From positions 1 to 64,000 of the forward strand of contig JAWLHK010000025.1 in assembly GCA_041690355.1 (NCBI GenBank): DNA of 64,000 nt. Reading direction: 5' to 3'. Shown here in pieces: positions 34,374 to 64,000 of this stretch (within the stretch, counting starts at the first letter, position 1; each line of letters starts with the position of its first letter). The position numbers and the translations under genes are program-made. Source of the DNA: a bacterium. Its GTDB lineage: Bacteria > J088 > JAWLBW01. Below the pieces are notes generated by a model. It saw only the letters and a program-made list of their open reading frames with translations. It searched no databases and was not told the origin of the DNA.

Positions 34374-34460
34374 TGGTGCCGGGAGCGGGGGTCGAACCCG
34401 CATGCCCTCGCGGGCGCGCGATTTTGAGTCGCGTGCGTCTGCCAATTCCGCCATCCCGGC
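34374..34460 (-). tRNA. tRNA-Leu(CAA)
   Basis: Reverse complement GCCGGGATGGCGGAATTGGCAGACGCACGCGACT-CAA-AATCGCG...GGTTCGACCCCCGCTCCCGGCACCA; long variable arm; encoded CCA. Confidence 0.97.
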
Positions 34461-43179: not shown

Positions 43180-47370
<4,191 letters not shown>

Positions 47371-47400
47371 GCCTCAGCGCGAATCGGAATATCGATTCAC

Positions 47401-47434
47401 GGGGGAGCTCTGGAAAGGGCTCCCCCGTTTTCTT
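47401..47434 (+). terminator. rpoBC terminator
   Basis: GGGGGAGCTC-loop-GGGCTCCCCC followed by GTTTTCTTT. Confidence 0.8.
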
Positions 47435-47541
47435 TGGCGGCGTTCCGGCGGAAACCCGGGTGCAAGGCGCGGTTCGACCGGGAAGCGAATCCGCGAGACC
47501 CAGGTGCGGAAATCCGCCTCGCGCTGAGGCTACCATGGTGC

Positions 47542-48357
47542 ATGTTTCGCTGGTGTGCCAATTGCCAACGCTATCTCGGTGAGAAACCGCCGTTCGACAA
47601 CTTCGCGCTCACGCACACCTTTTGCGACGACTGCGCGCCGAAGTTGCTGGCGGGGGGCTCGATTGCCGGGGAGCCGCTCACGGCCGGCATCTATCGGGAT
47701 TTCATGCGTGCCGTGCATGAGTCCGACCTGCTCCTGGCGCAACGGACCCTCACCCTCGCCCGCCAAGCCGGCATTCCGGACCTCGATCTCGCCGTCGGCA
47801 TTCTGCAGCCCTTGCTGTATGAAGTGGGGGTCGCCTGGGCGGCAGGACATCTTTCGGTCTGGCAGGAGCACCGCATTTCGGGATGGGTCGAAGAGGTCCT
47901 CGCGGCCATGGCGGCCGCCCGCTCCACCCCGGAGAAGCCGGGGGGAATCCTCCTGCTCGCCGCTCCGGGAAATCAGCACACCCTGGGACCGCGCCTGCTC
48001 ACGCTCGAACTGGCCGCGCGCGGACTCGCCGTCACCGCGGTACTTCCGGGCATGCCCCTCGCCGAGTATCCCCGCCTGATCGAGCGCTCCTCGCCGCGAA
48101 TCGTCGGGATATCCGTGGGCGATCCGGCAAGTCTTACCACGCTGGAGCCGGCGGTGCACATCCTCGAAGTGCGGTTTCCGGAGGTTCGCTTCGTCGCCGG
48201 CGGTTCTGCCGTGCGCCTGAACCCGGGGCTCCGCGCCGACATGACGCTGATCCCGGCGACCGACGAATTCGTGCGTCTGGCGCTGGAGACCAGGGTCGCC
48301 GGGGTGCCTCTTCGGAGCCCGCCGGTGATTCTGGAAGGGGATCGGAAGTCACCGTGA
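47542..48357 (+). CDS. Cobalamin-binding domain protein (CarH-like) with N-terminal zinc finger
   Basis: CANC...THTFCDDC; W-x9-EH (WAAGHLSVWQEH); GNQHTLG; VGIS and VAGG Rossmann strands. Confidence 0.75.
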   Translation: MFRWCANCQRYLGEKPPFDNFALTHTFCDDCAPKLLAGGSIAGEPLTAGIYRDFMRAVHESDLLLAQRTLTLARQAGIPDLDLAVGILQPLLYEVGVAWAAGHLSVWQEHRISGWVEEVLAAMAAARSTPEKPGGILLLAAPGNQHTLGPRLLTLELAARGLAVTAVLPGMPLAEYPRLIERSSPRIVGISVGDPASLTTLEPAVHILEVRFPEVRFVAGGSAVRLNPGLRADMTLIPATDEFVRLALETRVAGVPLRSPPVILEGDRKSP

Positions 48358-48735
48358 CGGGTTTCCGAAAGCAAACTCCTGGGCCGGTTCTCAATCGATC
48401 TTGTCCAAAGGATACTGGGAGCGCGTCGAACGGGATGCCGCTGTTCGCGAGATCGGCGAGGTCCAGCGGCTGGCCAACGCCTTGGGTGACGAAGAGCTAG
48501 AAGACGGCTGACGTGGCTTCTTGCTACCAATGCACTCATCCACGCGTCGAGAGGGAACCCGCCGTCAGTTCGCCGGCGACTTTCGCATTGTCATTTCAGC
48601 GAGGTCATGGGCTACCGCCCAGGCGCGCCGCCGCGTCGCCGCGGGGCAGAAGAGGCCCCGCAGAAAGCAATCACTCCCTGCCCTGGCCGAGGTGCCCGCG
48701 GCCACGACACGGGGGCGCGCATCTCCGTCGACAAT

Positions 48736-49056
48736 TCAGTTCGTCGTACAGACTTCGCAGAAGTTATAGCAGTTGGCCGAGTCGTCGTCGGTTGTGTCAT
48801 CCGGATCGGTGCAGTACTCGTCCTTCTTCGGCCCCGCCGTGCACCAGCAGTCGCCCGAGCACATGTAATCGGCCGTGCAGCTCTGGTTTGAACTGTCATC
48901 CGTGTTGTCGGTGTTATCGGTATTGTCGTCGGTGTTATTGTTGTTATCGCTGTTGTTGGACGTCGTGGTCGTCTCTTCGGTCCCGCAGGCCGACAGCAGC
49001 GCGCCGGTCGCGCTCAGTAGAAACAGAGCGAGAAAGAGGCTGGAGAGCATACGCAT
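48736..49056 (-). CDS. Cys-rich acidic lipoprotein
   Basis: LSAC lipobox, T/N/D-rich linker, 8 Cys in the C-terminal ~50 aa; AAGGAG SD. Confidence 0.75.
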   Translation of the reverse strand: MRMLSSLFLALFLLSATGALLSACGTEETTTTSNNSDNNNNTDDNTDNTDNTDDSSNQSCTADYMCSGDCWCTAGPKKDEYCTDPDDTTDDDSANCYNFCEVCTTN

Positions 49057-49229
49057 GGGAAACTCCTTTTTTTTGAGCGTTCAACTTCCCGAATCCAGTT
49101 ACCCTACCGGAACCCGATGCAGACGGGTGTGACGGGCATCACAGCGGGGTATCCAGACGATTGTCCCCTGACGCTATTGCAGCCGTTGGTTTTGGGTCCC
49201 CCGGACGGGGGGCGACAGGGGGGGGGACG

Positions 49230-49359
49230 CGCCTCACCCCACCAGCATCCCTTTGTCGCGCCAGGTCTCTTCGAGCCAGAGGCGCAGGGCCGCGTGGTCG
49301 TCACGCTGGAGTTCCGGGTCGCCTTCGAGGATGCGCAGGGCCGCATCACGGGCCGCGCC
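49230..49359 (-). repeat. Direct repeat, left copy: duplicated 3' end of recG
   Basis: 130 bp matching 60900-61029 except C49285 vs T60955; encodes GAARDAALRILEGDPELQRDDHAALRLWLEETWRDKGMLVG-stop. Confidence 0.97.
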
Positions 49360-49618
49360 TTGGCCGACATGGGACTGGGCGACAAATGATTTTGTGTTCC
49401 TGGGAGAATACGACAGCGGGATAGACCTCCCGGTCGTAGTGGGGGGCTGGCTCATCTGTGTACTCCGCGCCCGCAACCGATCTTCAATAAAGTCAGAGTG
49501 TTAGCGCGGCAGGACAGCATTTGTCCTCTGATGCCGCTATGATACTGCTTCACTGGCGCGGAACATCTCGTCACGCTAGGATATAGCCTTAATTGAATCG
49601 CTCCGGTAGGTGAGGGGT

Positions 49619-50239
49619 ATGGAAATTGTTGCCAACATGGTAGAACTTCGTTTTCCCGTGCGCGGGGACCGCATCCCCGTCGACCACGGGTATTCCCTAT
49701 ATTCGTCACTCGCCGACTGCCTTGAGCGGGCAGATTCCTGGGTCCATGAAGCAAACGATTTTGGTCTGCTTTTGGTCCGCGGCACGTACGATGGTAAGGG
49801 GGCACTCGCCCTCGGAGAGCAGTCATGGTTTGGCGTGCGAACGCCGGCGGACCGTATCGCTCGTTTTCTGCCGTTGGCCGGGAAACGCTTACGAATTCAG
49901 CAACACCCAATCGTCGTTGGGGTCCCTCGCACGGCTCTTCTGACTCCTGCATCGGAGGTGCGCGCACACATTGTCACGACTCGAAACGGGCACGAAGAGG
50001 AACGGTTCGATACAGAAATTCGTCGCCAGATGGATGACCTCGGGATTGTAGGACACATCGAACGCGGGCAGCGGCGTGTGTTTAAGGTTCATGGGAAAAA
50101 GGTCGTCGGCCACACGCTATTTGTTCGGGACTTGTCGCCTGAACACTCGCTCATACTCCAAGAGCGGGGTCTGGGGGGGCGGCGGAAGATGGGCTGCGGT
50201 GTGTTCACCCCGTACCGTCGGGAGGATCAGGAAGTATGA
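49619..50239 (+). CDS. cas6: Cas6 (MYXAN/Cmx6 type)
   Basis: L.FPV.G..IP.DHGY.LYS.L N-terminus; C-terminal Gly loop GLGGRRKMGCGVF. Confidence 0.93.
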   Translation: MEIVANMVELRFPVRGDRIPVDHGYSLYSSLADCLERADSWVHEANDFGLLLVRGTYDGKGALALGEQSWFGVRTPADRIARFLPLAGKRLRIQQHPIVVGVPRTALLTPASEVRAHIVTTRNGHEEERFDTEIRRQMDDLGIVGHIERGQRRVFKVHGKKVVGHTLFVRDLSPEHSLILQERGLGGRRKMGCGVFTPYRREDQEV

Positions 50240-52515
50240 CCCTCGTTGCCACCGACGCCGATGTCCTGTACGCCAAGCGCCCTACACGGGGCCGGTCTGT
50301 ACCAACGGTGTATCAACACGGGGCAGACGTGGCATCGGCAGCCAGAGCCATAATGGCTGCGATTCGAACACCGCTCAGGGAGACATTCGGATTATCAGAA
50401 GAAGAAGTAACCCGCTTGGAGCGTTTGCTCCAAATCGCCGCTTTGCTTCATGATATTGGCAAGGCCAACAGCGCGTTTCAAGACATGCTGCTTGGTCGAC
50501 TGGGCGAACGACGGCAACCGGTCCGCCATGAGGTGCTGGGTGCCATTCTCTGTTTTCAGGACGAAGTCTGGGGACGATGGTTTAAGTCCGTGTTCGCCGA
50601 AGAGGACTACTGGACCGTCTGCTGGGCGGTTGCCGGGCACCATCTGAAAGTTTCTCGGCATACGCAGGAAAGTCTGTTTCGTGTGGCAAATACGCCTGCG
50701 TACTTATCCATTTCCTTGGGTAGTGCTGATGTTCGACAGTTGCTCTTGGCCGTATTCGCCGCAGCCGGAAAACCGGTCGCCCGACCCCCGGAAATCGGTG
50801 ATCTGAAATTTGACCTTGACGAGTCTACGCTCGCATTGTCGATCGATGCCTTTGTCGCCGAGTCCGCCTCGGCGTGGCGGCGCTTGAAAGACGCGGAGAC
50901 ATTCCGGCGCGACCTTGCACTGCTGAAGGCGCTCTTGATCTCAGCCGATGTCGCCGGCTCTGCGCTGCCGGCCAAAGGGGAGCCCATTGAGCGCTGGATT
51001 GACCAGAGCCTCTCCCTCGACCTGGATGCGGCGGCTGCGAATCGAGTCGTCGAGAGTCGCCTCGCGGGTAAACGCCCACACAGATTTCAGGAAGAGGTTG
51101 CGGTCTCAGAGTCTACGGTCACGCTCGTTCTCGCGGGTTGCGGCAATGGGAAGACAACTGCCGCCTACATGTGGGCAAGACGGCAGGCGATGGGGCGTAA
51201 GCTGTTTTTTGCGTATCCGACCACAGGGACGGCGTCGGCGGGCTTCGACGACTATCTGGTTGGTGTCGATGAGATAGAGGCCGCGCTGATGCACAGCCGG
51301 TCAACCGTCGACCTGGAAGAAATGCTCGATGTCCCTGAGGCGGCGCGCGAAGAGGCGGCCAAAGAGGTGGTTGATCGGCTTCAAAGCATGCGCGCCTGGG
51401 ATCGGCAGGCCATTGTGTGCACCACAGACGCAGTTCTCGGCCTCGTACAAAACCAGCGCCGCTCTCTCTTTTCGTTCCCCTCCCTCGCAAAGGGGGCCTT
51501 CGTCTTTGATGAAATTCATAGCTACGATGCGCGTCTTTTTGAAGCGTTGCTCTCCTTTCTGGCGACCTTCAAGAATGCGCCCGTGCTGCTGATGACCGCC
51601 TCGTTACCGCCCAGTCGAATGAAGGCTTTACGCGAATGCCTTGGAGATCGCCTTCCTGGGCGGCCCATTACAGGTGAGCCGACACTGGAACGGCTTGAGC
51701 GCTACCGCATCACGTGGCGAGACACCAAGGAGATGTGCGTTGAGGAATGTGAGCAGGCTCTTGCACGTGGGGAGAAGGTGTTGTGGGTCTGCAACACGGT
51801 ATCGGAAGCAATCATGACTTACGATCGCCTGGCCCCTGTTGCCGAAATGTTGAAGGCTCGCACTTTTTTGTTCCATAGTCGTTTCCGATATGAAGATCGC
51901 ATGGTTCTGCAGAAGAACCTTCTTCGGGCGTTCGATGGGAATGGACCTCTCCTGGCCGTCACAACGCAGATTTGTGAGATGTCGCTCAATATCAGTTCCG
52001 AAACATTGATTTCTGCGTCGTGTCCCTTTCCCGCGTTGATTCAACGACTCGGGAGGCTGAATCGCTTTGCCACACAGAGTGACCCACGGCCTGCATATCT
52101 GTATCCGTTTCAGGGCAGACCCTATGACGAGCCTGAGGACGTGTTCCTGCGTGAAGAAGGCGAGAAGTTGATTCGAGCGCAAGCAGGCTCGCCGCTGTCC
52201 CAGCACGATCTCGCTCGCGCTCTCGATGGAATGGAGTGGACAGGCGGCGATGCCGACCTCTTTCGCCACCATGCGTGGCTAGACGGTGGGTGGGAAAGTG
52301 AGCCCCTCCCCCTCAGGGGTGGCGATAGCTCGGTGACCTTGGTGAGGGCAGAAGATATCCCGAGCCCTCTCGATGATACGCAATTGATACGAAGGACAAT
52401 TCCAATGCCGATACACAGAAAAATACAAGCTTACGAACGTATTGGCGGATACCTGATAGCACCAGCCGGCTCCATTCACTATTGTCCCGAGCGGGGGGCG
52501 ACATGGGCAGATTGA
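50236..52515 (+). CDS. cas3: Cas3 HD nuclease-helicase
   Basis: LLHDIGKAN, RHE, AGHH, SAD; GCGNGKT, YPT, FDEIH, MTAS, HSRF, QRLGRLNR. Confidence 0.96.
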   Translation: MTLVATDADVLYAKRPTRGRSVPTVYQHGADVASAARAIMAAIRTPLRETFGLSEEEVTRLERLLQIAALLHDIGKANSAFQDMLLGRLGERRQPVRHEVLGAILCFQDEVWGRWFKSVFAEEDYWTVCWAVAGHHLKVSRHTQESLFRVANTPAYLSISLGSADVRQLLLAVFAAAGKPVARPPEIGDLKFDLDESTLALSIDAFVAESASAWRRLKDAETFRRDLALLKALLISADVAGSALPAKGEPIERWIDQSLSLDLDAAAANRVVESRLAGKRPHRFQEEVAVSESTVTLVLAGCGNGKTTAAYMWARRQAMGRKLFFAYPTTGTASAGFDDYLVGVDEIEAALMHSRSTVDLEEMLDVPEAAREEAAKEVVDRLQSMRAWDRQAIVCTTDAVLGLVQNQRRSLFSFPSLAKGAFVFDEIHSYDARLFEALLSFLATFKNAPVLLMTASLPPSRMKALRECLGDRLPGRPITGEPTLERLERYRITWRDTKEMCVEECEQALARGEKVLWVCNTVSEAIMTYDRLAPVAEMLKARTFLFHSRFRYEDRMVLQKNLLRAFDGNGPLLAVTTQICEMSLNISSETLISASCPFPALIQRLGRLNRFATQSDPRPAYLYPFQGRPYDEPEDVFLREEGEKLIRAQAGSPLSQHDLARALDGMEWTGGDADLFRHHAWLDGGWESEPLPLRGGDSSVTLVRAEDIPSPLDDTQLIRRTIPMPIHRKIQAYERIGGYLIAPAGSIHYCPERGATWAD

Positions 52516-54155
52516 CCGAAGGTATGACCTGGAGGCTGAGCGATCCGGGAATGGGGATTATGGAACGGGCTGGCCTTGCGGCGCTCTATCTTTCCTTGCA
52601 AGCCGCCAGAGAGCACGACATAGACCTTTCGCCTTTGGTATGGGAGAAAGGCGATCTCACTTCCGAAAGCGTTACCATTCGATCGATCGGAAGTGACGAA
52701 GACGCGCTCCTCGCCCTTTTCCGATGGGCCTGGCAGGTTCGCGAAGGGGTTCTTTACCTTCCGGCCCTGCATGATGAGCGTGAACGCGACAATCTGCATG
52801 TGAGGCTCGCGCACCATAACGGCATCCTCTCGACCTTTCTTCAACATCCCAAGGTTCAGCCCAAGGGGGCGCCGGAGCGGCGATTCGTTGTGCTGGATGA
52901 AGGAAAGGAAATTCCGGTCGGTTATCAGACCCTTGATCCGGCAAGGCTCAAGCCGATCGCGGACATTGGCGGATTAACGCGCAAAGGAAGCCTGGTCGAA
53001 AAGTCAATCGAACTGTCCGGCTGGGTCTTTCCGGGAATCGCCCCGCGCTATGCAACGGAAAAAGCCTGGATGGGTCCGCCGCAAATTGCCATCCTTCTTA
53101 TGCTTGCGCCTATCGCATGTGTTTATCATCCGCTGGCTTCCGATCGGTCAAGCTGGCTGACGGTGATCCCCGACGTGGTCGATCTGCGAGCCTTTCAGGA
53201 ACGGAGGGTACTCCTGCAGAATGCGTTGAAGGCGGAGATGACCCAGGTCGCCGGCATGAGTGACGCCGGTCTTCGTGTCTTGTCAGAGATGATTGCAGAC
53301 CAGACGATCCGCCTGCCAGTTGCGGGCTGTCGTGTAGTTGCGATGGGCAATGTCACGTACTACCCGAATCAGAAGGTGCGAAAAGGGGTCGTGAATCTCA
53401 CACCGCGCCGCGCGACGCTTGCTCGTTATCGAAAGGTTGTGCGCGTGATGGGAAACCACTGGGTCGCTCTTAAGCCCCCCGAGCCCAAGAAGGCCTCGAA
53501 AGGGCGAAAGCCGAAACCGGGCGGCACCGAAATAGAAAGGCTCGCGACCCACTTTGTCGCCATACCCGCGGGGCGTGGCCGGATTGCAGAGAACCTGGCA
53601 ACGGGCCAGCCGTGGTTCCAACACCTCTTTGAGCCGATGCCGTGGGAGAAAAAACGAATTCTGGATAGAAAACTTGGTGAGTCGGTGCAGAGCACCTGGT
53701 TTCGCCAGCTTTCAATGCAGCGAAAAAGACTTCATGAACTTTGTGAGGAGGCGTCCATGTGGGATAGCGATGAAGACCGTCAATTTGTCGAAGCGTTCTG
53801 GCAGAACCTTCGGGCACTTTATGCGCGGGAGGCCAGTGCGGTTGCAGATCGGGGCGGGTCGCGTGACCCGAGAAAACGATGGCAGCAGCTCAATGAAGAG
53901 TTACGTCGGCTGCTTGCGCGTGCTACAACGCGCAATCAGGTCAGACAGGTGCTTGCGGATATCTTCTCGCGCCCGGCCGGTCGGTTCCGCTCCAAGGTGC
54001 TGTCGGAGAATCCTGGGGCTGTCTGGCGCCTCATTGACGCCGATTGGCAGCGGGGCCGGGATCTTGCCTTGCTTGCCCTTGTGAGTTACCAGAGCGCTGA
54101 ATCGGACGAGCTAGCGCTTGAGCAGGAAACCATTCTGGAAGGAGAGACCGTATGA
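52503..54155 (+). CDS. cas8: Cas8 large subunit (Cmx8/DevT-like, type I-B MYXAN)
   Basis: L.DPGM...ERAGLAAL N-terminus, H.GIL.TFLQH, C-terminal RDLALLALVSY; sits between cas3 and cas7. Confidence 0.88.
   Translation: MGRLTEGMTWRLSDPGMGIMERAGLAALYLSLQAAREHDIDLSPLVWEKGDLTSESVTIRSIGSDEDALLALFRWAWQVREGVLYLPALHDERERDNLHVRLAHHNGILSTFLQHPKVQPKGAPERRFVVLDEGKEIPVGYQTLDPARLKPIADIGGLTRKGSLVEKSIELSGWVFPGIAPRYATEKAWMGPPQIAILLMLAPIACVYHPLASDRSSWLTVIPDVVDLRAFQERRVLLQNALKAEMTQVAGMSDAGLRVLSEMIADQTIRLPVAGCRVVAMGNVTYYPNQKVRKGVVNLTPRRATLARYRKVVRVMGNHWVALKPPEPKKASKGRKPKPGGTEIERLATHFVAIPAGRGRIAENLATGQPWFQHLFEPMPWEKKRILDRKLGESVQSTWFRQLSMQRKRLHELCEEASMWDSDEDRQFVEAFWQNLRALYAREASAVADRGGSRDPRKRWQQLNEELRRLLARATTRNQVRQVLADIFSRPAGRFRSKVLSENPGAVWRLIDADWQRGRDLALLALVSYQSAESDELALEQETILEGETV
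53757..54155 (+). CDS. cas11: Putative Cas11 small subunit from an in-frame internal start in cas8 (132 aa)
   Basis: GAGGAGG at 53745-53751, 5 nt before an in-frame ATG (MWDSDEDRQFVEAFW...). Confidence 0.7.
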   Translation: MWDSDEDRQFVEAFWQNLRALYAREASAVADRGGSRDPRKRWQQLNEELRRLLARATTRNQVRQVLADIFSRPAGRFRSKVLSENPGAVWRLIDADWQRGRDLALLALVSYQSAESDELALEQETILEGETV

Positions 54156-55027
54156 CGATGCATATTTTCGGTACCGTTTTGACCGCACGCGGCGTAGCCG
54201 CCAACAACCGGGGCGAGAACGAAGGGTCGATGACTACGCTGCAGAAGGTGGTGCGTGGGGGCAATCTTCACACGACCGTAAGCAGCGAGGCAGTTCGGTA
54301 TGCCATTCGTGAGCTGTGGGGGCAGGACGGGGACCTGGAAACCAACCGCAAGGTCTCCCATCGCGGCAACGAATGGGCCGATAAGGACTTTGGCAAGGGG
54401 TGGGAGAAGTTTATCGATAATGACGTTCTCGGTTTCATGCATGCGAAGAAGGAAACGGTCAGCCGACGCGGCATTCTTGAAATCGGCCGTGCAGTCAGCA
54501 CTACGCCATGGCCGGGGACCATTGCTGCCAACTTTGCTTCGCCCGGCGCGAACCCGAGCGTCAGTCACAACGATCCCGTCCCTTATGCCGGTGAAATTCA
54601 CGATACGCGCTACCAGTTTTCCTTCGCCATGACCCCTGACGCCCTCGAAGGCGAAAATAAGCTGGCCCGCACAGAGGCAACATTGCGTGCCCTTCAGTCG
54701 CTGCGGCGTGTCGGCGGCAATCACGGGCGGTACCTTTATGATTTTTCCCCGGAATCGGTGGTGTTTCGGGTCACGCAGGATCCGGCCCCGCGCATCATGT
54801 TCGTTTTCGAGGAGGGGGATAATGGCGAACTTTCCCTGTTGAAACTGGGTCGACGCCTGGAAGGGACCGAGCCGGACATTCGCCCGGAAGAACTGATCGT
54901 GGGCACGCTTCTTGATGATATTCAGGGGCTTGATGAGTTGCGGAAAAAGGGCGTGACCGTTCTGCCCGGGATTAAGGCCGCCGTCTCGGAGGTCCTTCAG
55001 CGACTGGGGGGCGCACTTGCAGCATGA
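54152..55027 (+). CDS. cas7: Cas7 (DevR/Cst2 family)
   Basis: AANNRGENEG....LQK, TTVS.EA.RYA.R, D.DVLGFM, VGGNH.R.LYDFSP.S. Confidence 0.93.
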   Translation: MTMHIFGTVLTARGVAANNRGENEGSMTTLQKVVRGGNLHTTVSSEAVRYAIRELWGQDGDLETNRKVSHRGNEWADKDFGKGWEKFIDNDVLGFMHAKKETVSRRGILEIGRAVSTTPWPGTIAANFASPGANPSVSHNDPVPYAGEIHDTRYQFSFAMTPDALEGENKLARTEATLRALQSLRRVGGNHGRYLYDFSPESVVFRVTQDPAPRIMFVFEEGDNGELSLLKLGRRLEGTEPDIRPEELIVGTLLDDIQGLDELRKKGVTVLPGIKAAVSEVLQRLGGALAA

Positions 55028-55644
55028 GTGAGCAGGTCAATTGGTCGCTACGCGTGCATGTTCCGGTGTGCTCGTTTCGACCGTTCGAGTCGAGGGAGTA
55101 CCAGGATACATACGCCGTACCCCCTCTCTCTACGATCTACGGGATGTTGCTTTCGTATTGCGGTATTCCCCGGGAAGAGCGAACTGTGCATAAAGGTGCT
55201 GCACTCGCTCTCGGCTTGGAGGGCATTACTGATCAGGCAAGCGTATTCCGAAAACTCCGGCGAGGGAAAGAACTCGAAACGGTTCGCCCGGACTACCAAG
55301 ATCTGCTTCTCGGCCTCACTTGCAGAATCTGGGTCTCACAGGGGAACGAAAAGGGAACCCCACCGTTGGTTGAGCGCTTGGATCGGGCGATGCGCAATCC
55401 TGGTTCCATACGGCGGGCGGGAGGGCTGTCGTTAGGCGAAAGCAGTTTCCTGGTCGACACCTTCACGCGGGCGCCCGGCCTGCCTGACGAAGAATTCCAG
55501 TTTCTTTGTCGGGATGACGCAGGGTTCGTGCAGTTGCCGCTCTGGGTCGATCATGATCAGAACCATCGAACCACAGGTCGATTCTCGCTGGTTTCGGGCA
55601 AGGCCAATGTGTTGCTGGACCGCTCGTGGATTCGTGTCGAATAA
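55024..55644 (+). CDS. cas5: Cas5 (DevS/Cmx5)
   Basis: VP..SFR....REY..TY.VPP.ST.YGMLLS..G; GLSLGESS.LV; LP.WVDH. Confidence 0.92.
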   Translation: MSEQVNWSLRVHVPVCSFRPFESREYQDTYAVPPLSTIYGMLLSYCGIPREERTVHKGAALALGLEGITDQASVFRKLRRGKELETVRPDYQDLLLGLTCRIWVSQGNEKGTPPLVERLDRAMRNPGSIRRAGGLSLGESSFLVDTFTRAPGLPDEEFQFLCRDDAGFVQLPLWVDHDQNHRTTGRFSLVSGKANVLLDRSWIRVE

Positions 55645-55748
55645 CGGCGTAGAGATACGTCTCTGTATACCCCTTGACAGATTCGTAGGAATATAATAGC
55701 GATAGGGAGGTGTCGATAGCCAAGTTAACCTAGATATCTGAGGAAGCC

Positions 55749-57383
55749 ATGCAACAGGTAGAGCAGGAGCCGCTGCTTCGTGTGATGGCGTTACATGCGC
55801 TCGCGTATTGCGAGCGTTTGTTTTTTCTGGAAGAGGTTGAAGAGATTCGGATAGCTGACGACCGTGTGTATTCTGGGCGGCGTCTGCACGAAACGATCCC
55901 CGAGGGCGAAGGAGAGTGGCAGTCGTTGGTTCTCGAGAGTGACCGATGGGGCATTCGGGGAAAAATCGATTTTGTCCGATATCGCGACGGAATGATGATT
56001 CCCTACGAGCACAAACGAGGGCGCTCCTGCAGCGGTGAGGCGTGGTCTTCTGACCGACTTCAGATCATTGCGTATGCCGCGCTGCTCGCGGAGCATTCGG
56101 GGCACAAGATTGAAGAGGGGCGGGTACGCTACCACGGGGATAATCGGACTGCCTACGTATCTGTCGATAGCGAAGCGCTGAGCTGGATGCAGACAATGAT
56201 TGGCCGCGGTCGAGAGCTTGCTCGGTCGGTACATCGCCCTCAGGTGGCCGAGAACGAAAACCTTTGCGCGCACTGTTCGTTGGCGCCTGTATGCCTTCCT
56301 GAGGAAGAACGTTTCATGCGGGCACAGGAAATGGATAGCGTCTACGAACCAGAACGGATTTTTCCGCCTGACGACGAGCGTAAGATTGTTCACGTAGTCG
56401 GCCACGGAACACGGGTGGGCAAATCCGGCGAGCAGTTTGTGATACAACCCCGAGAAGGAGATAAGAAAAAGTTTCCTGGACACGATGTGTCGGCTATCGT
56501 ACTGCATGGAAATGCACAGCTGACCACGCAGGCGCTTCATTTTGCCGCGGCCAACGGCGTCGGTGTGCATTGGATATCGACGGGAGGCAACTACGTCTCA
56601 GGGCTTGCGCCGGCAGGAGGTGTCCAGCGTAGACATCGCCAATTCCGAGCCCTGTCCGATAGTGGGTTCTGCTTGGCCCTTGCAAGAAAGCAGGCCGAGG
56701 CTAAGGTAGAGAATCAGTCGAGGTTCGTCTGGCGCAGTGCCCGGGGCAAAGCTGTTGAAGCCGAGCTCGCCCCGCTGGTCGAAGGAATGCGTCAGGAGCA
56801 GAGAACTCTGGCGCGGGCGTGCAGTGCCGATCAGATCCGAGGCCATGAAGGCCGGGCCGGGCGGCTGTATTTTGAAGCGCTGTCACTTCTCGTCAGCGAT
56901 GATACGCCACTCATGTTGTTTTCGGGCCGTAACCGTCGGCCTCCGAAGGATCCCTTCAATGCCGCGTTGAGTTTTGGCTATAGTCTCCTATATCGAGACG
57001 TTATGGGCGCAATCGTCTCGGTTGGTCTTGACCCAGCGTTTGGGTTCTTACATACGCCACGCAGCTCGGCGTATCCCCTTGCGCTCGACCTTATGGAGCT
57101 GTTTCGTACCACGCTCGTTGATATGCCGCTTCTTGCGTCCGTGAATAGAAATCAGTGGCGCGAGGAGCACTTCAGCCGAACCAGGGAACAGGTATGGTTG
57201 ACTGAGGATGGAAGAAAGCTTGCCATCTCACTCTATGAGATGAGAAAGCAGGAGTCGTGGAAGCACCCTGTTCTCCAGTATTCGTTGAGTTACGCGCGTG
57301 CAATTGAGTTGGAGGTTCGGCTGCTGGAGAAAGAATGGTCCGGAACGCCCGGTCTTTTCGGGCAACTTCGACTGCGCGGTTAG
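55749..57383 (+). CDS. cas1: Cas4-Cas1 fusion (MYXAN type)
   Basis: Cas4: YCERLF, GKID, EHKRG, Q..AYA, C..CSL..VC. Cas1: G.EG, RNRRPPKDPFNA.LSFGY, GFLH, LALDLMELFR. Confidence 0.95.
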   Translation: MQQVEQEPLLRVMALHALAYCERLFFLEEVEEIRIADDRVYSGRRLHETIPEGEGEWQSLVLESDRWGIRGKIDFVRYRDGMMIPYEHKRGRSCSGEAWSSDRLQIIAYAALLAEHSGHKIEEGRVRYHGDNRTAYVSVDSEALSWMQTMIGRGRELARSVHRPQVAENENLCAHCSLAPVCLPEEERFMRAQEMDSVYEPERIFPPDDERKIVHVVGHGTRVGKSGEQFVIQPREGDKKKFPGHDVSAIVLHGNAQLTTQALHFAAANGVGVHWISTGGNYVSGLAPAGGVQRRHRQFRALSDSGFCLALARKQAEAKVENQSRFVWRSARGKAVEAELAPLVEGMRQEQRTLARACSADQIRGHEGRAGRLYFEALSLLVSDDTPLMLFSGRNRRPPKDPFNAALSFGYSLLYRDVMGAIVSVGLDPAFGFLHTPRSSAYPLALDLMELFRTTLVDMPLLASVNRNQWREEHFSRTREQVWLTEDGRKLAISLYEMRKQESWKHPVLQYSLSYARAIELEVRLLEKEWSGTPGLFGQLRLRG

Positions 57384-57393
57384 GGAGGGGGAT

Positions 57394-57684
57394 ATGGCGG
57401 AGAAGCGCTGGTACTTGTTGACGTATGACATCCGAGAGCCAAAGCGATGGCGAAAGGTTTACCAGAAGCTATCTGGCCGCGGCGATCGTTTACAGTATTC
57501 GGTATTCCGTTGCTGGATGACCAAGACCGAGTTGGAGCGCCTGCGATGGGAACTGGAACGCATTCTTACAGATGAGGATGATCTCCTTGTGGTTCACCTC
57601 TGTCCAGGCTGTGCGTCGCGGGTTGACGCACGCGGTAAGCTGGAAGAAAAGCTCCCGGTACGAAATCGGGTCGAAATCGTTTGA
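57394..57684 (+). CDS. cas2: Cas2
   Basis: YL..YDIR.PKRWRK, G.RLQYSVF; GGAGG SD. Confidence 0.95.
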   Translation: MAEKRWYLLTYDIREPKRWRKVYQKLSGRGDRLQYSVFRCWMTKTELERLRWELERILTDEDDLLVVHLCPGCASRVDARGKLEEKLPVRNRVEIV

Positions 57685-57933
57685 TGCCGCATCCTTCATG
57701 GATCGTTGTGTGGCTCTTAGCTTAGCGGGAACTGTCGATTGTCAACTCTAGGAAAATACTAGGGAAAATGGATGTTGAGTTGACAATGTGATCCATGAGG
57801 ATGCTAAACCCATGTTATGGCAAGAGAAACTTTGTCACAATGTCTACCGCGCCAGCAAATCGACGGCTTGAACTCGGAATCCATGTAGATGCCGAGAAAA
57901 AAGAAAGATATATCATGGGTTTGCTAGCTGGCT
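57685..57933 (+). promoter_or_regulatory. CRISPR leader
   Basis: AT-rich non-coding segment between cas2 and the first repeat. Confidence 0.8.
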
Positions 57934-60356
57934 GTGCCTGATTCCCTGATGCCGAAAGGCGTTGAGCACCTTTTCAATCACGACTTCGACCGCCACATCT
58001 TTTCAATCACGACTTCGACCGCCACATCGGCAGTGCCTGATTCCCTGATGCCGAAAGGCGTTGAGCACAAGGCCAGATACTCCATCTATTCCCGCACGAT
58101 CAAGGTGCCTGATTCCCTGATGCCGAAAGGCGTTGAGCACCCCCGAAATCCAAGCCGGTAGAGCTGCGAGTCCAGTGCCTGATTCCCTGATGCCGAAAGG
58201 CGTTGAGCACAGAATCCTAGCCATTGACCCGGGCACCGTCGAGAGTGCCTGATTCCCTGATGCCGAAAGGCGTTGAGCACAATACACGGGGTGCCTCGTC
58301 AACACGCTGACGCTCGTGCCTGATTCCCTGATGCCGAAAGGCGTTGAGCACTAAATATGGAGCGTTGGGTTGGCGTTGTTAAACTTAGTGCCTGATTCCC
58401 TGATGCCGAAAGGCGTTGAGCACGCATGGAGTACTACCGTGGGCTCCTAGACGAGTGCGCGTGCCTGATTCCCTGATGCCGAAAGGCGTTGAGCACGACG
58501 CAGCGGTTCCCGTCTGATTCCTTCCGGGGCTAGTGCCTGATTCCCTGATGCCGAAAGGCGTTGAGCACATGAGCCGCGTAACTACCGCATGGGCGATGAC
58601 AAGTGCCTGATTCCCTGATGCCGAAAGGCGTTGAGCACGTGCTCCCGCTCAAGCAGGTGACGCAGCTTGCCCGCGTGCCTGATTCCCTGATGCCGAAAGG
58701 CGTTGAGCACACGTTACTGATTCATCCGGGGCGGCGGCGAACGGGAGTGCCTGATTCCCTGATGCCGAAAGGCGTTGAGCACGACGGACGCAGCCGCAGC
58801 CGCGGGGATCGTCCGGAGTGCCTGATTCCCTGATGCCGAAAGGCGTTGAGCACTGATCATAGCCGGCCACAATTTGACGGCCGCCGACAGCGTGCCTGAT
58901 TCCCTGATGCCGAAAGGCGTTGAGCACCAGAGCTTGCAGGCCATGCCCGGACCCTCGTGGATCGTGCCTGATTCCCTGATGCCGAAAGGCGTTGAGCACA
59001 TCTTCGATGAGCCGATTGACGAGTATCACGATAATGTGCCTGATTCCCTGATGCCGAAAGGCGTTGAGCACACGACCTATCAGGGAGAGGGATGGGCCGG
59101 TCAGATGTGCCTGATTCCCTGATGCCGAAAGGCGTTGAGCACGAGCAACCCCGTTTCCTCATTCACCGTGTACTCAAAGTGCCTGATTCCCTGATGCCGA
59201 AAGGCGTTGAGCACATCGTTCCCCAGAACGCAAGTATCCAGAAATCAGGTGCCTGATTCCCTGATGCCGAAAGGCGTTGAGCACAGGCGTACTCGCAAGG
59301 GTGGGAGGCCGGTTTCGAGGCGTGCCTGATTCCCTGATGCCGAAAGGCGTTGAGCACAAAGGGTTATTGGTAAACCTAACTTGGTGCCTGTAGTGCCTGA
59401 TTCCCTGATGCCGAAAGGCGTTGAGCACATCAGGCCCCCCGTGTCTCCTGCGAACGTTTGGATGTGCCTGATTCCCTGATGCCGAAAGGCGTTGAGCACC
59501 AGCTAGCCCGGACGGATACCGGCGAAATTGTAGACGGTGCCTGATTCCCTGATGCCGAAAGGCGTTGAGCACGGTCAAAGAGGGGGACTGTGGCTTTGGC
59601 CATGGGTTGTGCCTGATTCCCTGATGCCGAAAGGCGTTGAGCACACGTACAGTGCCCCGTGCGCCCGCTGCTTGCGGAAGTGCCTGATTCCCTGATGCCG
59701 AAAGGCGTTGAGCACCCTTCCTGAGTAGGCGCACTGACGGGGTGCGCGAGATGTGCCTGATTCCCTGATGCCGAAAGGCGTTGAGCACGCCTGATCGCCG
59801 TGGAGGGTGAACTGGCGGCGGATCGTGCCTGATTCCCTGATGCCGAAAGGCGTTGAGCACTGGTCCATCCTGCACCTTGAGGCCACCGGGCGCAAGTGCC
59901 TGATTCCCTGATGCCGAAAGGCGTTGAGCACCTGATCCTCTCTCTCGATAGGTCCGGCCCCCGCCGCGTGCCTGATTCCCTGATGCCGAAAGGCGTTGAG
60001 CACATGTCGGAAACGATGTACTCTCGCTCCTCGTCTTGTGCCTGATTCCCTGATGCCGAAAGGCGTTGAGCACCCGAGGTAGAAGAATGGCGTGTTGCTG
60101 CTGCTCGTGCCTGATTCCCTGATGCCGAAAGGCGTTGAGCACCCGCGGAAGGATGGCATCTACGGCGCGGCGGCCATGTGCCTGATTCCCTGATGCCGAA
60201 AGGCGTTGAGCACGCAAGGTGAACGAGTTTTCGTGCACGACGTTCTCCAGTGCCTGATTCCCTGATGCCGAAAGGCGTTGAGCACCTGATTGCCCCGTGG
60301 TCGCGGATCTGCGTCAGGATGTGCCTGATTCCCTGATGCCGAAAGGCGTTGAACGA
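57934..60356 (+). CRISPR. CRISPR array: 34 repeats (GTGCCTGATTCCCTGATGCCGAAAGGCGTTGAGCAC, 36 bp) and 33 spacers
   Basis: Counted directly. Spacers are 33-38 bp except spacer 1 (63 bp). The last repeat (60321) has a degenerate 3' end (TTGAACGA). Internal hairpin TGATGCC-GAAA-GGCGTTG. Confidence 0.99.
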
Positions 60357-60381
60357 AGTATCTGCAGATCGGCACCCGATT

Positions 60382-60470
60382 TGAAGGCGTGGAGGACGAT
60401 GGCCGGAGCCTGGAACTGCGTCGCGGCCGATCGAGTCCCTGATTGCTTGACGCCGAGTGGCAATCCGAAT
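60382..60470 (+). repeat. Degenerate CRISPR repeat half / 37-nt spacer-like segment / degenerate repeat
   Basis: AAGGCGTGGAGGAC (ends 60397) matches 12 of the last 14 repeat bases. GTCCCTGATTGCTTGACGCCGAGTGGC (60435-60461) matches 21 of the first 27. Confidence 0.7.
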
Positions 60471-60870
60471 TTTCCTCAGTCCGTGCTGTCCAAGACAGGG
60501 ATCGGGTGCCGGATGGAGTTGTGAGAATCCGTCAACGCCGTTCTCGGCAGCCGCGCGTCGATGAAGCAGGTTGTCGCCTTACACACCCGCCGGATACCGT
60601 TCGCCCCGCGCGCGTCGAGGCGCCAGAGTGTCGACGCGAAGATACTCGTGGCAGGAGCACCGAGCGAGTATATTGCTCTCGAACACGCTGCTCACGCGAG
60701 GCTGGCCCTTCGAGACGCCGGTGTCGACGTGCGCGTCGAACGATGCCGACTCGTGGAGCCCTGCTCGTCGAAGGACCGGCCCCTCAAGGGCGAACGGTCA
60801 CGGGCTGAGCCCATTTTGGAGACGACTGACTGCCCTTCGGGGTAAGGTCCTTGCTTCGTGCTCGCTTCAC

Positions 60871-60901
60871 CCGACGTCCGGCGTCCGACGTCCGGCGTCC
60901 G
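60871..60901. repeat. 7-bp tandem repeat (CCGRCGT, 4 units) abutting the recG stop
   Basis: ccgacgt ccggcgt ccgacgt ccggcgt ccg. Confidence 0.9.
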
Positions 60902-61029
60902 CCTCACCCCACCAGCATCCCTTTGTCGCGCCAGGTCTCTTCGAGCCAGAGGCGTAGGGCCGCGTGGTCGTCACGCTGGAGTTCCGGGTCGCCTTCGAGG
61001 ATGCGCAGGGCCGCATCACGGGCCGCGCC
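60900..61029 (-). repeat. Direct repeat, right copy (3' end of the intact recG)
   Basis: Matches 49230-49359 with one mismatch. Confidence 0.97.
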
Positions 61030-63348
61030 GAGCATGCGGGCATCGCGGACGGGATTGGCGACGTTGAGGGAGGGGAGGCCGCTTTGCCGCGTGCCGAGAA
61101 GATCCCCGGAACCGCGGATCTCCAGGTCGGCTTCGGCGATACGGAAACCGTCATTGGTTTCCGTCATGATCCCCAGGCGCGCCGCCGCGTCGCCGCGAGG
61201 CAGGTGGTCGACCCGCAGAAAGCAGTAGCTGTGGTCGCTGCCGCGGCCGACGCGCCCGCGCAGCTGGTGCAGCTGCGAGAGCCCGAAGCGGTCGGCGTGC
61301 TCGATGACCATGAGCGTCGCGTTGGGCACGTCGACGCCGACCTCGATGACGGTAGTGGAAACGAGGACGCCCGTCTCGCCGCGCAGGAAGCGGCCCATGG
61401 CGGCATCCTTCTCCGCCGCGCTCATGCGGCCGTGCAGGAGGTCGACGCGCGTCTCCGGCAGGGCGCGGGCCAGCAGTTCTGCCGCGCGCGTGGCGTCCTT
61501 GAGGTCGACCTTCTCGCTTTCTTCAATGAGCGGAAACACCCAGTAGGCCTGCCGCCCGGCCGCCAGCTCGGTTTTCAGGCGCCCCATGAGACCGCGCCGG
61601 TCGGTCTCGTCGGCGATGAGCACCGTTTCGACCGGCTTCCTTCCGGGCGGCATTTCGTCGAGCACCGAGACGTCCAGATCGCCATAGAGCGTCATGGCGA
61701 GCGTACGGGGAATCGGGGTGGCCGTCATGATCAGCACATGCGGCGGTTCCCCCTCGACGGCGGCCAACTTCGCGCGCTGGTGCACGCCGAAGCGGTGCTG
61801 CTCGTCGATAATCGCCAGCGCCAGCCGCGTGAAGCCGACTTCGGGCTCGATGAGCGCATGGGTCCCCACGACCACCATCGGTTCGCCTGCGGCCAGCCGG
61901 TCGCGGATCTCGCGCCGTTCCGCCGCTTTCGTGCTCCCCGTGAGCAGGCGGCTCTCGATACCGAGGGGATCCAGATAGCGCTTCGTGTTCCGCAGATGCT
62001 GTTCCGCAAGCAGCTCGGTGGGGGCCATGAGCGCCGCCTGGAATCCGGCGCGCACGGTCGCCGCCGCGGCGCCGAGAGCCACCAGGGTCTTGCCGCTGCC
62101 GACGTCACCCTGCACGAGGCGGTGCATCGGGGCGCCGCGGGCGAGATCCACGCCGATCTCCGCCAGGCTGCGCACCTGCGCGCCCGTGAGGGGAAAGGGG
62201 AGGGTCGCGCGAAACTGGTCCACCACGGCATCCGTCTGCGGAACCACCGCCGCGCGCTTCTTCGCGTATCCCGCTTTGCGGATCAGCATGCCGAGGGCGA
62301 TGAGCAGAAACTCGTCGAACACAAGCCGCTGCCGCGGCGGGTAGGCCGGATCGGCCGGGTCGGCTTCCTTGTGGCGCGGCAGGTGCATCTCGCGCAGCGC
62401 CCGATCGCGCGAATGCAGGCGCCAGTCTCTCCGGATCTCCGGCGGGAGCGGATCTTCGAGCTTCGCCTCCGTTCGCGCGAGCACCTCGCCCACCCACGCG
62501 CGCAGATTGCGGCTCGTGATCCCCTCGGTCTCGGAATAGACGGGGAGCATGCCGCGCGCGAGCTTGCCTGGCTGGCCAACATCGGGATGGATGAAGGAGG
62601 GGCGCCCCTCGAAGAACTCCAGCGTGCCCGCGGCCTCGATGGGCTGGCCGATGGCGAAGCTGCGCTGCAGGAAGTCCTTCTGCGGCTTGCTCGCGCGGAA
62701 CCAGATGAGGGCCAGCCCGGGTCCGCTGTCGAGCGCCATGTCGATGCGGAAGGCCTGGGGAAACCGGCGCAGCCGCATATCGCCGCGGGCGACCACCCGC
62801 CCCTGGACGAGCGCCATCGCCCCCCCGGGCACTCCGCTGAGCGTGCGCCGCTCTTCGCGGTTTTCGTAGCGGTGGGGGAGCCAGTACAGCAGGTCCTTGA
62901 AGTTGCGCAGCCCTTTGCCGATGAGCACGTCGGCGCGCTTGCGGCCGATGCCGGCCAGCTCGGTGAGCGGCGTGCGCAGAAGGTCTTCGGAGGCCCGCCA
63001 GCGCGTGACATCGGGCGGGCGATCGGGTTCCGGCTCGTCGGCTGGCCCCGCGGACTCCGCTTCGGCCGCCAGGCCGGGCGGCGCCGAAGCGGAAGCGGGC
63101 AGAAAATCCTCGGCCGCGCCGCCGAGGATCGCGAGCGCGCGCAGGTGCCGTGCGCGGCGCTCCTCTTCGGACAGGGTGCCCCAGCCCGTCAGGTTCTCGC
63201 GCAGCTTGCGCGCGACGAGGCCGTCTCCGTACGCTCCGAGCAGGCGCAACACCTGGCCGGCATAGGCCGTGGCGGCCGGTTCGAGGCCGGCAAGCCCCGC
63301 GCGCAGCTGCGCCCGGGCGGCGGGGGTATCGGGGTCGGGGCTGCTCAT
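60904..63348 (-). CDS. recG: ATP-dependent DNA helicase RecG
   Basis: Wedge domain; RL.FDE; QGDVGSGKT; MAPTELLAEQH; IIDEQHRFGV.QR; MTATPIPRTL; QLHQLRGRVGRG; DGF.IAE.DLEIRG.G. Confidence 0.98.
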   Translation of the reverse strand: MSSPDPDTPAARAQLRAGLAGLEPAATAYAGQVLRLLGAYGDGLVARKLRENLTGWGTLSEEERRARHLRALAILGGAAEDFLPASASAPPGLAAEAESAGPADEPEPDRPPDVTRWRASEDLLRTPLTELAGIGRKRADVLIGKGLRNFKDLLYWLPHRYENREERRTLSGVPGGAMALVQGRVVARGDMRLRRFPQAFRIDMALDSGPGLALIWFRASKPQKDFLQRSFAIGQPIEAAGTLEFFEGRPSFIHPDVGQPGKLARGMLPVYSETEGITSRNLRAWVGEVLARTEAKLEDPLPPEIRRDWRLHSRDRALREMHLPRHKEADPADPAYPPRQRLVFDEFLLIALGMLIRKAGYAKKRAAVVPQTDAVVDQFRATLPFPLTGAQVRSLAEIGVDLARGAPMHRLVQGDVGSGKTLVALGAAAATVRAGFQAALMAPTELLAEQHLRNTKRYLDPLGIESRLLTGSTKAAERREIRDRLAAGEPMVVVGTHALIEPEVGFTRLALAIIDEQHRFGVHQRAKLAAVEGEPPHVLIMTATPIPRTLAMTLYGDLDVSVLDEMPPGRKPVETVLIADETDRRGLMGRLKTELAAGRQAYWVFPLIEESEKVDLKDATRAAELLARALPETRVDLLHGRMSAAEKDAAMGRFLRGETGVLVSTTVIEVGVDVPNATLMVIEHADRFGLSQLHQLRGRVGRGSDHSYCFLRVDHLPRGDAAARLGIMTETNDGFRIAEADLEIRGSGDLLGTRQSGLPSLNVANPVRDARMLGAARDAALRILEGDPELQRDDHAALRLWLEETWRDKGMLVG

Positions 63349-63372
63349 GGCGGGAAAGGTGCTCCCGCCGTA

Positions 63373-64000
63373 TCAGAAGACGCTGATCTTGATGTAGCGC
63401 CCCGGGTTTTCTTTCATGTCGGCGATCAGGGCGCGCAGCTCGGCCAGGGTATCCTGCAGCGACGTGTGCAGCTCCTCGGAGGACAACGTCTTGCCGGCCG
63501 TCCCTTCGCCGGCCTCGACCTTGGCCATCACGTTGTCGAGGCGCGCCAGCGCCGAGTGGGCTTTGCCCATCGTGTCGCGCGCTTCGTCGTACAGCTGCGG
63601 ATCCTGCACCAGCTTCGCCAGGGTTCCCTCACCGCGGCGGATCTCGGTGACCAGGCCCTTGACCTCGTCGTAGAGTCCCGGATCGTTCAGCAGGCGGGCC
63701 AGCGAGCCGTCGCCGTGCTGCATCTGTTCGGTGAACTGCGAGAGGTTGGCCGTGATGCGCTCGAGATTGTCGTAGAGGGTCTGATCCTTGACGAACCGGC
63801 CGAACGAACCTTTGCCTTCGTTGATGTCCTGGCTCACGACGCGGAAGTTCTCGACGATGCGCGCGATGTTGCGCACGGTTACCGTTGCTTCATCGACGAG
63901 CAGCGACCAGTCGGTGGGCGGGATGGCTTCGATGCGGCCCCTGTGCTCGAGCACAGGCGCGCCCGTGGAGCCAAGCGTGATGGCGATGATCTTGTCGCCG
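63373..64000 (-). CDS. MlaD/MCE family protein (5' end outside the window)
   Basis: GDKII.IT.G, repeated GEG(T/S)L.KL..D..LY units, C-terminal D.KENP.RY...SVF. Confidence 0.85.
   Translation of the reverse strand, partial: GDKIIAITLGSTGAPVLEHRGRIEAIPPTDWSLLVDEATVTVRNIARIVENFRVVSQDINEGKGSFGRFVKDQTLYDNLERITANLSQFTEQMQHGDGSLARLLNDPGLYDEVKGLVTEIRRGEGTLAKLVQDPQLYDEARDTMGKAHSALARLDNVMAKVEAGEGTAGKTLSSEELHTSLQDTLAELRALIADMKENPGRYIKISVF

Follow-up and report, generated by a model that had tools for sequence, protein, structure and literature searches.

CRISPR-Cas genes between two copies of the recG 3′ end

We analysed a 64,000-nucleotide stretch of bacterial DNA (contig C25:1-64000, hereafter the window) from a 42-contig draft genome (G000) of 4,640,913 bases, in which C25 measures 73.9 kb. 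Towards its right end the window contains a complete cas operon of type I-MYXAN and an array of clustered regularly interspaced short palindromic repeats (CRISPR), bracketed by two direct copies of a 130-nt segment that ends the helicase gene recG. All open reading frames (ORFs) of this cassette lie on the plus strand and are uninterrupted, while recG is read from the minus strand. Protein families were assigned with Pfam and NCBIfam, using the cut-off of each NCBIfam model. The features of the bracket are as follows (E-values follow the family accessions; GC denotes the G+C fraction).

49230-49359, minus: orphan copy of the recG 3′ end, with Leu codon CTG (repeat finder, MAFFT, blastn, translation)
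49360-49609, plus: left margin upstream of cas6, GC 0.54, unique sequence
49610-50239, plus: cas6 (Cmx6; PF09559, 3.2e-53; TIGR02807, type I-MYXAN Cas6/Cmx6, 2.1e-53)
50236-52515, plus: cas3, HD nuclease and helicase (Cas3_HD, DEAD, Cas3-like_C_2; TIGR01587, TIGR01596)
52482-54155, plus: cas8a1 (Cmx1/Csx13; TIGR03485, 4e-51; TIGR03486, 4.5e-31; no Pfam match)
54152-55027, plus: cas7 (DevR/Cst2; PF01905; TIGR02585, 6.4e-35)
55024-55644, plus: cas5 (Cmx5/DevS; PF09704; TIGR02586, 1.4e-34)
55749-57383, plus: cas4-cas1 fusion (PF01930 and PF01867; TIGR03983, cas1_MYXAN, 6.3e-139)
57298-57684, plus: cas2 (PF09827; TIGR01573)
57685-57933, plus: AT-rich leader of 249 nt between cas2 and the first repeat, recognized by composition (GC 0.45)
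57934-60356, plus: CRISPR array of 33 identical 36-nt repeats and a degenerate terminal repeat, with 33 spacers
60900-61029, minus: repeat copy completing recG, with Leu codon CTA (repeat finder, MAFFT, blastn)
60904-63348, minus: recG, an 814-codon ORF (RecG_wedge, DEAD, Helicase_C, RecG_dom3_C; NF008168, 3.3e-248)

The two recG ends are identical at 129 of 130 positions according to the repeat finder, MAFFT and blastn (99.231% over 130 nt, E 1.9e-64), which bears out a preliminary description of the locus that had reported a 130-bp identity with one mismatch. The repeat consists of the last 41 codons of recG, the stop codon and 4 nt downstream, an extent likewise given there and recovered here by minus-strand translation, each copy yielding the same 41 residues and stop. 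The sole mismatch, C at 49285 and T at 60955, leaves exact runs of 55 and 74 nt. The edges of the repeat are sharp: the MAFFT alignment contains no alignable sequence common to both sites beyond the 130 nt, and recG similarity was absent to the right of 49362. Exactly two copies occur in the 4.64-Mb genome, in which neither the repeat nor a core taken from it recurs elsewhere; the next best match, 24 nt on contig C3, lies in a coding region and was set aside as chance similarity. A genome-wide survey of direct repeats (length 50 nt or more, identity 93% or more, both members on the same contig with a spacing of 2-150 kb) identified 21 pairs, the recG pair being among those of highest identity. 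The only surveyed pair above it is one of 568 nt on contig C5, 2.6 kb apart.

The mismatch is synonymous, as had been noted, and falls in a leucine codon, which reads CTG in the orphan and CTA where the repeat completes recG. In a set of 1378 long ORFs of this genome with high GC at third codon positions (GC3), CTG accounts for 44.1% of leucine codons and CTA for 0.9%; in the cas genes the share of CTA is 2.4%, and recG has no other CTA codon. The rarity of CTA in the functional copy therefore stands as described. The polarity argument that could be built on it is not decisive, since it concerns one base only and since the recG of G001, the only family-level relative in GTDB (where the phylum comprises 5 genomes), has ATA at this codon, so that its third-position A matches the functional copy here. 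The CTA codon weakly favours the functional copy as the incoming one. Since the encoded RecG tail does not differ between the copies, recG would survive a recombination event joining the two; on this point the preliminary description is supported. Family alignments of the complete RecG cover residues 45-809 at their widest (NF008168), most of them beginning at residues 122-146.

The orphan recG tail is situated in an 88-codon stop-to-stop frame on the minus strand (49234-49500; 80 amino acids counted from a TTG). If expressed, this frame would join 47 residues from the island margin to the 41 C-terminal residues of RecG; we saw no coding signal in the part upstream of the repeat.

Between the copies we identified everything that defines a type I-MYXAN system, namely the signature Cas6, Cas8a1 and Cas5 proteins, Cas3, Cas7, Cas4-Cas1-Cas2 and an adjacent array with leader. 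The signature models scored above their cut-offs (bits, cut-off in brackets): TIGR02807 181 (98.9), TIGR03485 173.6 (80.9), TIGR03486 108.3 (47.4) and TIGR02586 119.3 (111.5), with TIGR03983 for Cas1 reaching 462.8 (358). Judged from its sequence, the system looks complete and usable. The degenerate terminal repeat occupies 60321-60356, at the end of the array away from the leader, and no spacer has a full match in the genome itself. The leader-proximal spacer (57970-58032) is 63 nt long as against 33-38 nt for the others and contains a sequence of about 29 nt in tandem, as might result from slipped or aberrant acquisition or from the loss of a repeat. An Rfam search of 47000-64000 returned CRISPR-DR matches only (including CRISPR-DR33), all weak and sub-threshold, and no other known RNA family. 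The segment 49360-60356 has a GC of 0.573, compared with 0.639 for rpoC, 0.706 for recG and 0.646 for the whole window; this deficit relative to neighbours at 0.64-0.71 supports the view that the cas segment is compositionally foreign.

Margins of the bracket and an older recG fragment

The sequence on either side of the cassette proved more structured than the short non-coding margins previously described. Five further features are needed here.

48618-48700, minus: older, decayed recG fragment (F2′), aligning to recG 61172-61260, about codons 696-726
48736-49056, minus: small Cys-rich ORF of 106 amino acids (ORF list; strong GC3 periodicity)
49164-49226, strand not assigned: G-rich hairpin motif immediately after the stop codon of the orphan recG copy
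60481-60850, strand not assigned: copy of a dispersed repeat of about 250-370 nt with nested inverted repeats, about 20 copies in the genome
60871-60899, strand not assigned: tandem heptamer (CCGACGT/CCGGCGT)n, abutting the functional recG stop and 130-nt repeat

The right margin (60357-60899; 543 nt, GC 0.639) is made up of a copy of the dispersed repeat and the heptamer array, both abundant genome-wide. Thus, while the cas genes and array lie between the recG ends as the preliminary description had it, the right margin is not a plain spacer. The roughly 20 copies of the dispersed repeat in this genome share 67-83% identity and include C26:38272-38500, C5:184554-184792, C13:103782-104010, C27:46698-46936, C8:37645-37886 and C15:64227-64580. 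They have a conserved long-range helix with one compensatory pair, GC in 7 and CG in 6 of 13 copies. For such dispersed motifs our comparison set was G001 and three genomes of the sister family; the repeat was found in none of these four and matched no Rfam family. It could be a miniature inverted-repeat transposable element, a REPIN-like element or a structured RNA. A coding signal in 60450-60810 is accounted for by this repeat.

The heptamer has a 24-nt core that occurs exactly at 8 loci in this genome; the motif gave 17 matches in G001 and 0 in the three sister-family genomes and is thus common to two genera of the family. In the copies printed, one side is often T-rich. The copy on contig C2, one of the 8, ends in the same 5 nt that open the 130-nt repeat, and for this reason the point where the heptamer array meets the recG stop looks, if faintly, like contiguous native sequence of the lineage. 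The preliminary description had envisaged a minimal cassette that entered as a circle. That the island is a self-contained foreign circle is not supported by the last 543 nt beside the functional recG, which consist of repeats specific to the genome or family; the incoming DNA would therefore have come from a very close relative, or else the right side is native.

On the other side of the bracket, the left margin and the leader have no other match in the genome (49360-49620 searched for the margin). The G-rich hairpin motif that follows the orphan recG stop is dispersed, with 12 more matches of 28-60 nt at 81-96% identity on 9 other contigs. Past the stop and 4 nt, the two recG ends are followed by different lineage-typical motifs, as would be expected if the repeat ended where the homology of two putative partner haplotypes ended.

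Further to the left, F2′ is a second and older recG fragment. Its blastn match covers 55 nt at 87% identity (E 4e-11 when the window is searched and 1e-9 for the whole genome, the next best being 0.005), and its local alignment pairs 83 with 89 nt at about 82% with indels. The alignment score of 80 compares with 23.8 +/- 2.5, and a maximum of 36, in 200 shuffles. With tblastn, 11 of 11 residues matched in LPRGDAAARLG, and GSD-CFLR was recovered in another frame. The two orphan fragments flank the small Cys-rich ORF, F2′ lying 35 nt downstream of its stop. If the repeat segment within recG is written F1 and its orphan copy F1′, the order along the recG direction is recG body, F2, F1 and stop, cassette, F1′, small ORF, F2′. 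The two duplications begin at different recG positions, 61029 for the repeat and ~61260 for F2′. If both fragments mark insertions, this is the order expected of two successive events at the recG end, the older of which would have brought or enclosed the small ORF. As far as the present sequence allows, the second fragment indicates that the end of recG is a site which has been rearranged more than once.

The product of the small ORF has a signal peptide, a lipobox-like LSAC recognized by eye, 9 further cysteines past the lipobox cysteine and an Asn/Asp/Thr-rich low-complexity stretch. It matched no Pfam family (a chance-level E of 0.011 only) and no NCBIfam family, and has no paralogue in the genome. 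The indels of F2′ relative to recG form a 7-bp stem just downstream of the stop of this ORF. Further left, an ORF at 47434-48357 (plus strand) encodes a B12-binding-domain protein with weak similarity to the light-responsive repressor CarH (NF052513, 2.4e-11, far below cut-off) and no MerR-type DNA-binding domain in the Pfam scan.

Mobility genes and related loci

To identify mobility genes we utilized a six-frame family search of the whole genome for tyrosine recombinases (PF00589), serine recombinases (PF00239) and rve-type transposases (PF00665). None was found on C25, which confirms, and extends to the entire contig, the earlier statement that no recombinase or transposase lies between the copies. 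The search for a candidate integrase that had been suggested yielded matches off C25 only: PF00589 had 6 matches, on C4, C8, C13 and C26; PF00239 had 1, on C38; and PF00665 had 2, on C33 and C38. Four of the tyrosine recombinases are not of Xer size, and the serine recombinase is a large one. None of the 21 other direct-repeat pairs is located on C4, C13 or C26, and the five pairs on C8 are confined to 88-138 kb, distant from its integrase at 193.8 kb. With neither a third copy of the recG repeat nor repeat pairs near the integrases, the trans-acting integrase proposed in the preliminary description received no positive evidence. The margin ORFs, considered as possible remnants of an integrase, matched no Pfam family at E values up to 0.1. 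Genes of the tniQ/tnsA-C type were absent from the Pfam results for ORFs within or next to the bracket, no family search having been aimed at them. Contig C38 (11,374 bases) contains both the large serine recombinase (a 556-aa frame, match C38:1247-1669) and an rve-type integrase/transposase (C38:10715-11011), and is possibly a separate mobile element.

Other hallmarks of integration were also sought at the site. There is no tRNA or tmRNA target, the only tRNA of the window being at 34374-34460, and none of the 25 inverted-repeat pairs listed corresponds to the island ends. The absence of an rve domain from C25 and the 130-nt length of the duplication set the locus apart from transposons, CRISPR-associated transposons and casposons, and no Cas1 is present apart from the Cas4-Cas1 fusion that belongs to the adaptation module. 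A Ku homologue is encoded in the genome, so end-joining is possible.

In G001 recG has 73% amino-acid identity to the gene studied here, and its surroundings are non-syntenic on both the recG and the rpoC side. The cas operon of G001 is the closest we found (Cas6 60%, Cas3 55% and Cas8 61% identity, the next best Cas3 being at 45%) and has the same GC deficit, 0.55 against 0.63 in its surroundings. It occupies a different site, beside homologues of genes on our contig C27 and with no recG nearby, from which it follows that the cassette changes place within the family. The region upstream of cas6 in G001 is built differently from the left margin here and has no gene-end duplicate, the opposite end of that locus being unassembled. 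This upstream region (contig C67 8614-9297) contains short dispersed motifs, among them a palindrome-like ttcatattatgaaagga unit present three times.

Among 15 related I-MYXAN loci, 11 have the order cas6-cas3-cas8a1-cas7-cas5-cas4/cas1-cas2 and the other 4 are cut or partial. None of the 15 has recG within its fetched flanks, and none of the 11 loci extending from cas6 to cas2 is spanned by a direct repeat, with just 0.4-4.9 kb of downstream sequence, mostly array, available in these. The RecG C-terminal 450 aa were used to scan metagenomes, and identity was at most 59% among the 80 loci listed. None of these 80 metagenomic recG loci, 49 of which have at least 2 kb downstream, contains a second copy of the recG coding end. 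Six of them gave matches of 19-40 nt only, nearly all intergenic and just past the stop; in one (L008) a short A/T-rich motif is repeated a few times and was read as an intergenic motif. Duplicated recG ends, which the preliminary description had suggested seeking in other genomes, were not encountered in these 80 loci. A search of 5.8 billion proteins identified 5 RecG proteins at 71-75% identity and none closer. No near match to the island was found on plasmids, where a distant I-MYXAN Cas8a1 (22-26%) is present on 4 cyanobacterial plasmids.

Origin of the arrangement

The arrangement is most likely the outcome of general recombination between close relatives, rather than of a dedicated mobile-element enzyme. 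In the form we favour, to which we assign a probability of roughly 0.45, the locus is a recombinant of two haplotypes from close kin, one with and one without the island, generated by Campbell integration or by homology-facilitated illegitimate recombination (HFIR). Campbell insertion duplicates the homologous segment. In Campbell/HFIR events, described in Acinetobacter and pneumococcus and known mainly from laboratory transformation, one stretch of homology and one illegitimate joint suffice to insert non-homologous DNA. The present structure can be written as an island-free one (left flank, 130 nt, recG) plus an inserted block comprising 49360-60899 and one 130-nt copy, and whatever model is adopted has to include an illegitimate joint at 49359|49360. 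In the island-free arrangement rpoC, the B12-binding gene and the small ORF would have stood directly behind recG, and in the island-bearing one the type I-MYXAN cassette and the lineage-typical repeats. One illegitimate joint at 49359|49360 and one homologous exchange inside recG would convert these into the order seen today.

Two routes would lead to this outcome, and in neither would an element-encoded recombinase be necessary. In the first, a donor fragment of 11.67 kb, with one end 130 nt into recG, would have been circularized and inserted by a single RecA-type crossover within the 130 nt (Campbell integration). In the second, linear DNA anchored in one flank would have been joined by HFIR. 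The source would be a very close relative, or a sister chromosome, with the cassette already behind recG; this is the simplest source because the block ends in lineage repeats and because the copies differ at one synonymous site. An identity of 129/130, synonymous sites included, appears to fit a conspecific donor or the recipient's own DNA, and would not fit an element that had evolved apart from its host. Likewise, two scars with different end points argue for repeated homology-driven events and not for one fixed att core. We infer that RecA-mediated exchange within the identical stretches (55 and 74 nt) could remove the cassette exactly, with recG preserved.

Several observations weigh against this interpretation. 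Neither a donor, nor an empty site, nor a circular form was seen, and there is no close relative among the 5 genomes of the phylum in GTDB. With a homology of only 130 nt, Campbell insertion should be a rare event. The structure would look no different had an integrase acted in trans or been deleted later. Of the 8 copies of the motif, one provides the 5-nt continuity at the right junction, and the dispersed repeat could have inserted once the cassette was in place, in which case the argument from a native margin would be weaker.

Site-specific integration at the recG 3′ end is an alternative that we regard as unlikely. The locus would then be a remnant, or resemble a cis-mobilizable element (CIME), with the repeats as attL and attR and the integrase deleted or supplied in trans. 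The architecture is the classic one, in that terminal direct repeats derive from the 3′ end of a target gene which remains intact around cargo of deviant composition; the four tyrosine recombinases of non-Xer size and the large serine recombinase elsewhere in the genome are potential sources of activity, and the pair of nested recG scars looks like what tandem accretion would leave at one att site. By definition a CIME retains attL and attR after losing the genes for its integration and transfer (PMC6323972). However, neither a recombinase domain (PF00589 or PF00239) nor a recognizable remnant accompanies the putative att site anywhere on the 73.9 kb of C25, where the margin ORFs lack Pfam matches, and a cognate integrase-bearing element with the same att is missing from this genome, in which the 130 nt, or a core of them, has no third copy. 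The scars begin at different points of recG (61029 and ~61260), and the att-proximal end is built of host-lineage repeats. The 130-nt repeat is also far longer and more identical than the att cores known to us for such elements. In one literature search recG did not come up as an att site, and among the papers listed its sole mention concerned integron integrases.

The near-identity of the copies could also be explained without a donor piece of recG, by a break in the tail of recG, staggered or two-ended, that was filled in while a linear fragment, from the same genome or a relative, was captured by end-joining or template switching. On that view the recipient would be the source of both copies, which would form a very long target-site duplication. 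The sharp edges without extended homology, the presence of Ku and the different sites of the cassette here and in G001 are consistent with such break repair. We nevertheless consider it improbable, as the right edge, exactly 4 nt past the stop, would require both chance and selection, and the right junction looks native and continuous; furthermore, we know of no documented bacterial precedent for fill-in duplications of 130 nt. An assembly artefact, in which an island-free chromosome was threaded together with a cassette that had the 130 nt in common with it but existed separately, as a circle or at another place, is very improbable: the assembly is a 42-contig draft and the integrated state has nearly the same k-mer content as an empty site plus circle, but the mismatch splits the repeat, such that by our reasoning k of at least 77 or a read spanning 132 nt should link the alleles to their flanks, and the junction of an empty site or of a circle is found on no other contig.

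The locus has the architecture of known islands but behaves more like a Campbell or HFIR product. Like SGI1, which is inserted at trmE and duplicates the 3′ end of that protein gene (PMC8409611), the locus has direct repeats of the target 3′ end, an intact target gene and cargo of deviant composition. In contrast to islands of the SGI1 type it has no integrase, excisionase or mobilization gene, its target is recG, its repeat of 130 nt is 99% identical and its inner end is made of host-lineage repeats. With CIMEs it shares the bounding repeats and the missing integration and transfer genes. The repeats of CIMEs, however, are the att sites of a known integrase of an integrative and conjugative element (ICE), whereas here there is no cognate element or further att copy in the genome and there are two scars with different end points. 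Genomic islands of Vibrio carry entire CRISPR-Cas systems as cargo, as does the present locus, and reportedly have site-specific recombination modules (PMC5109276, PMC6360697). Compared with these Vibrio islands, the present locus has no recombination module, and its system is of type I-MYXAN and comes from a poorly sampled phylum.

The resemblance to Campbell/HFIR insertion lies in a duplicated homology and a single illegitimate joint. We found no description of a natural 11.5-kb defence cassette with a 99%-intact scar of this kind, no dedicated literature search having been made. The spread of complete CRISPR-Cas loci outside plasmids, ICEs and transposons is poorly documented, and this locus has kept an almost undecayed scar, in which the 130-nt duplication is still 99% identical, a single joint is illegitimate and a recombinase is lacking, and from which a simple route to precise cassette loss with recG intact is predicted. 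Being a single case from a lineage whose close relatives are missing from public data, it amounts to a well-described example and not to evidence of a new mechanism. A broader proposition, which we hold to be quite unlikely, is that CRISPR-Cas cassettes of this lineage move without a dedicated recombinase, the tail of recG, a conserved housekeeping gene, serving as a homology handle through which RecA inserts them into island-free relatives and removes them. The recG end would then be a recurrent docking site, which would explain two nested scars of different age, and immunity would be a reversible presence/absence polymorphism. Among type I-MYXAN systems, the dev-type operons of Myxococcus have the same gene set and order as the cassette described here, and in relation to the 15 loci compared, with no recG in their fetched flanks, the bracketing duplication is particular to this genome.

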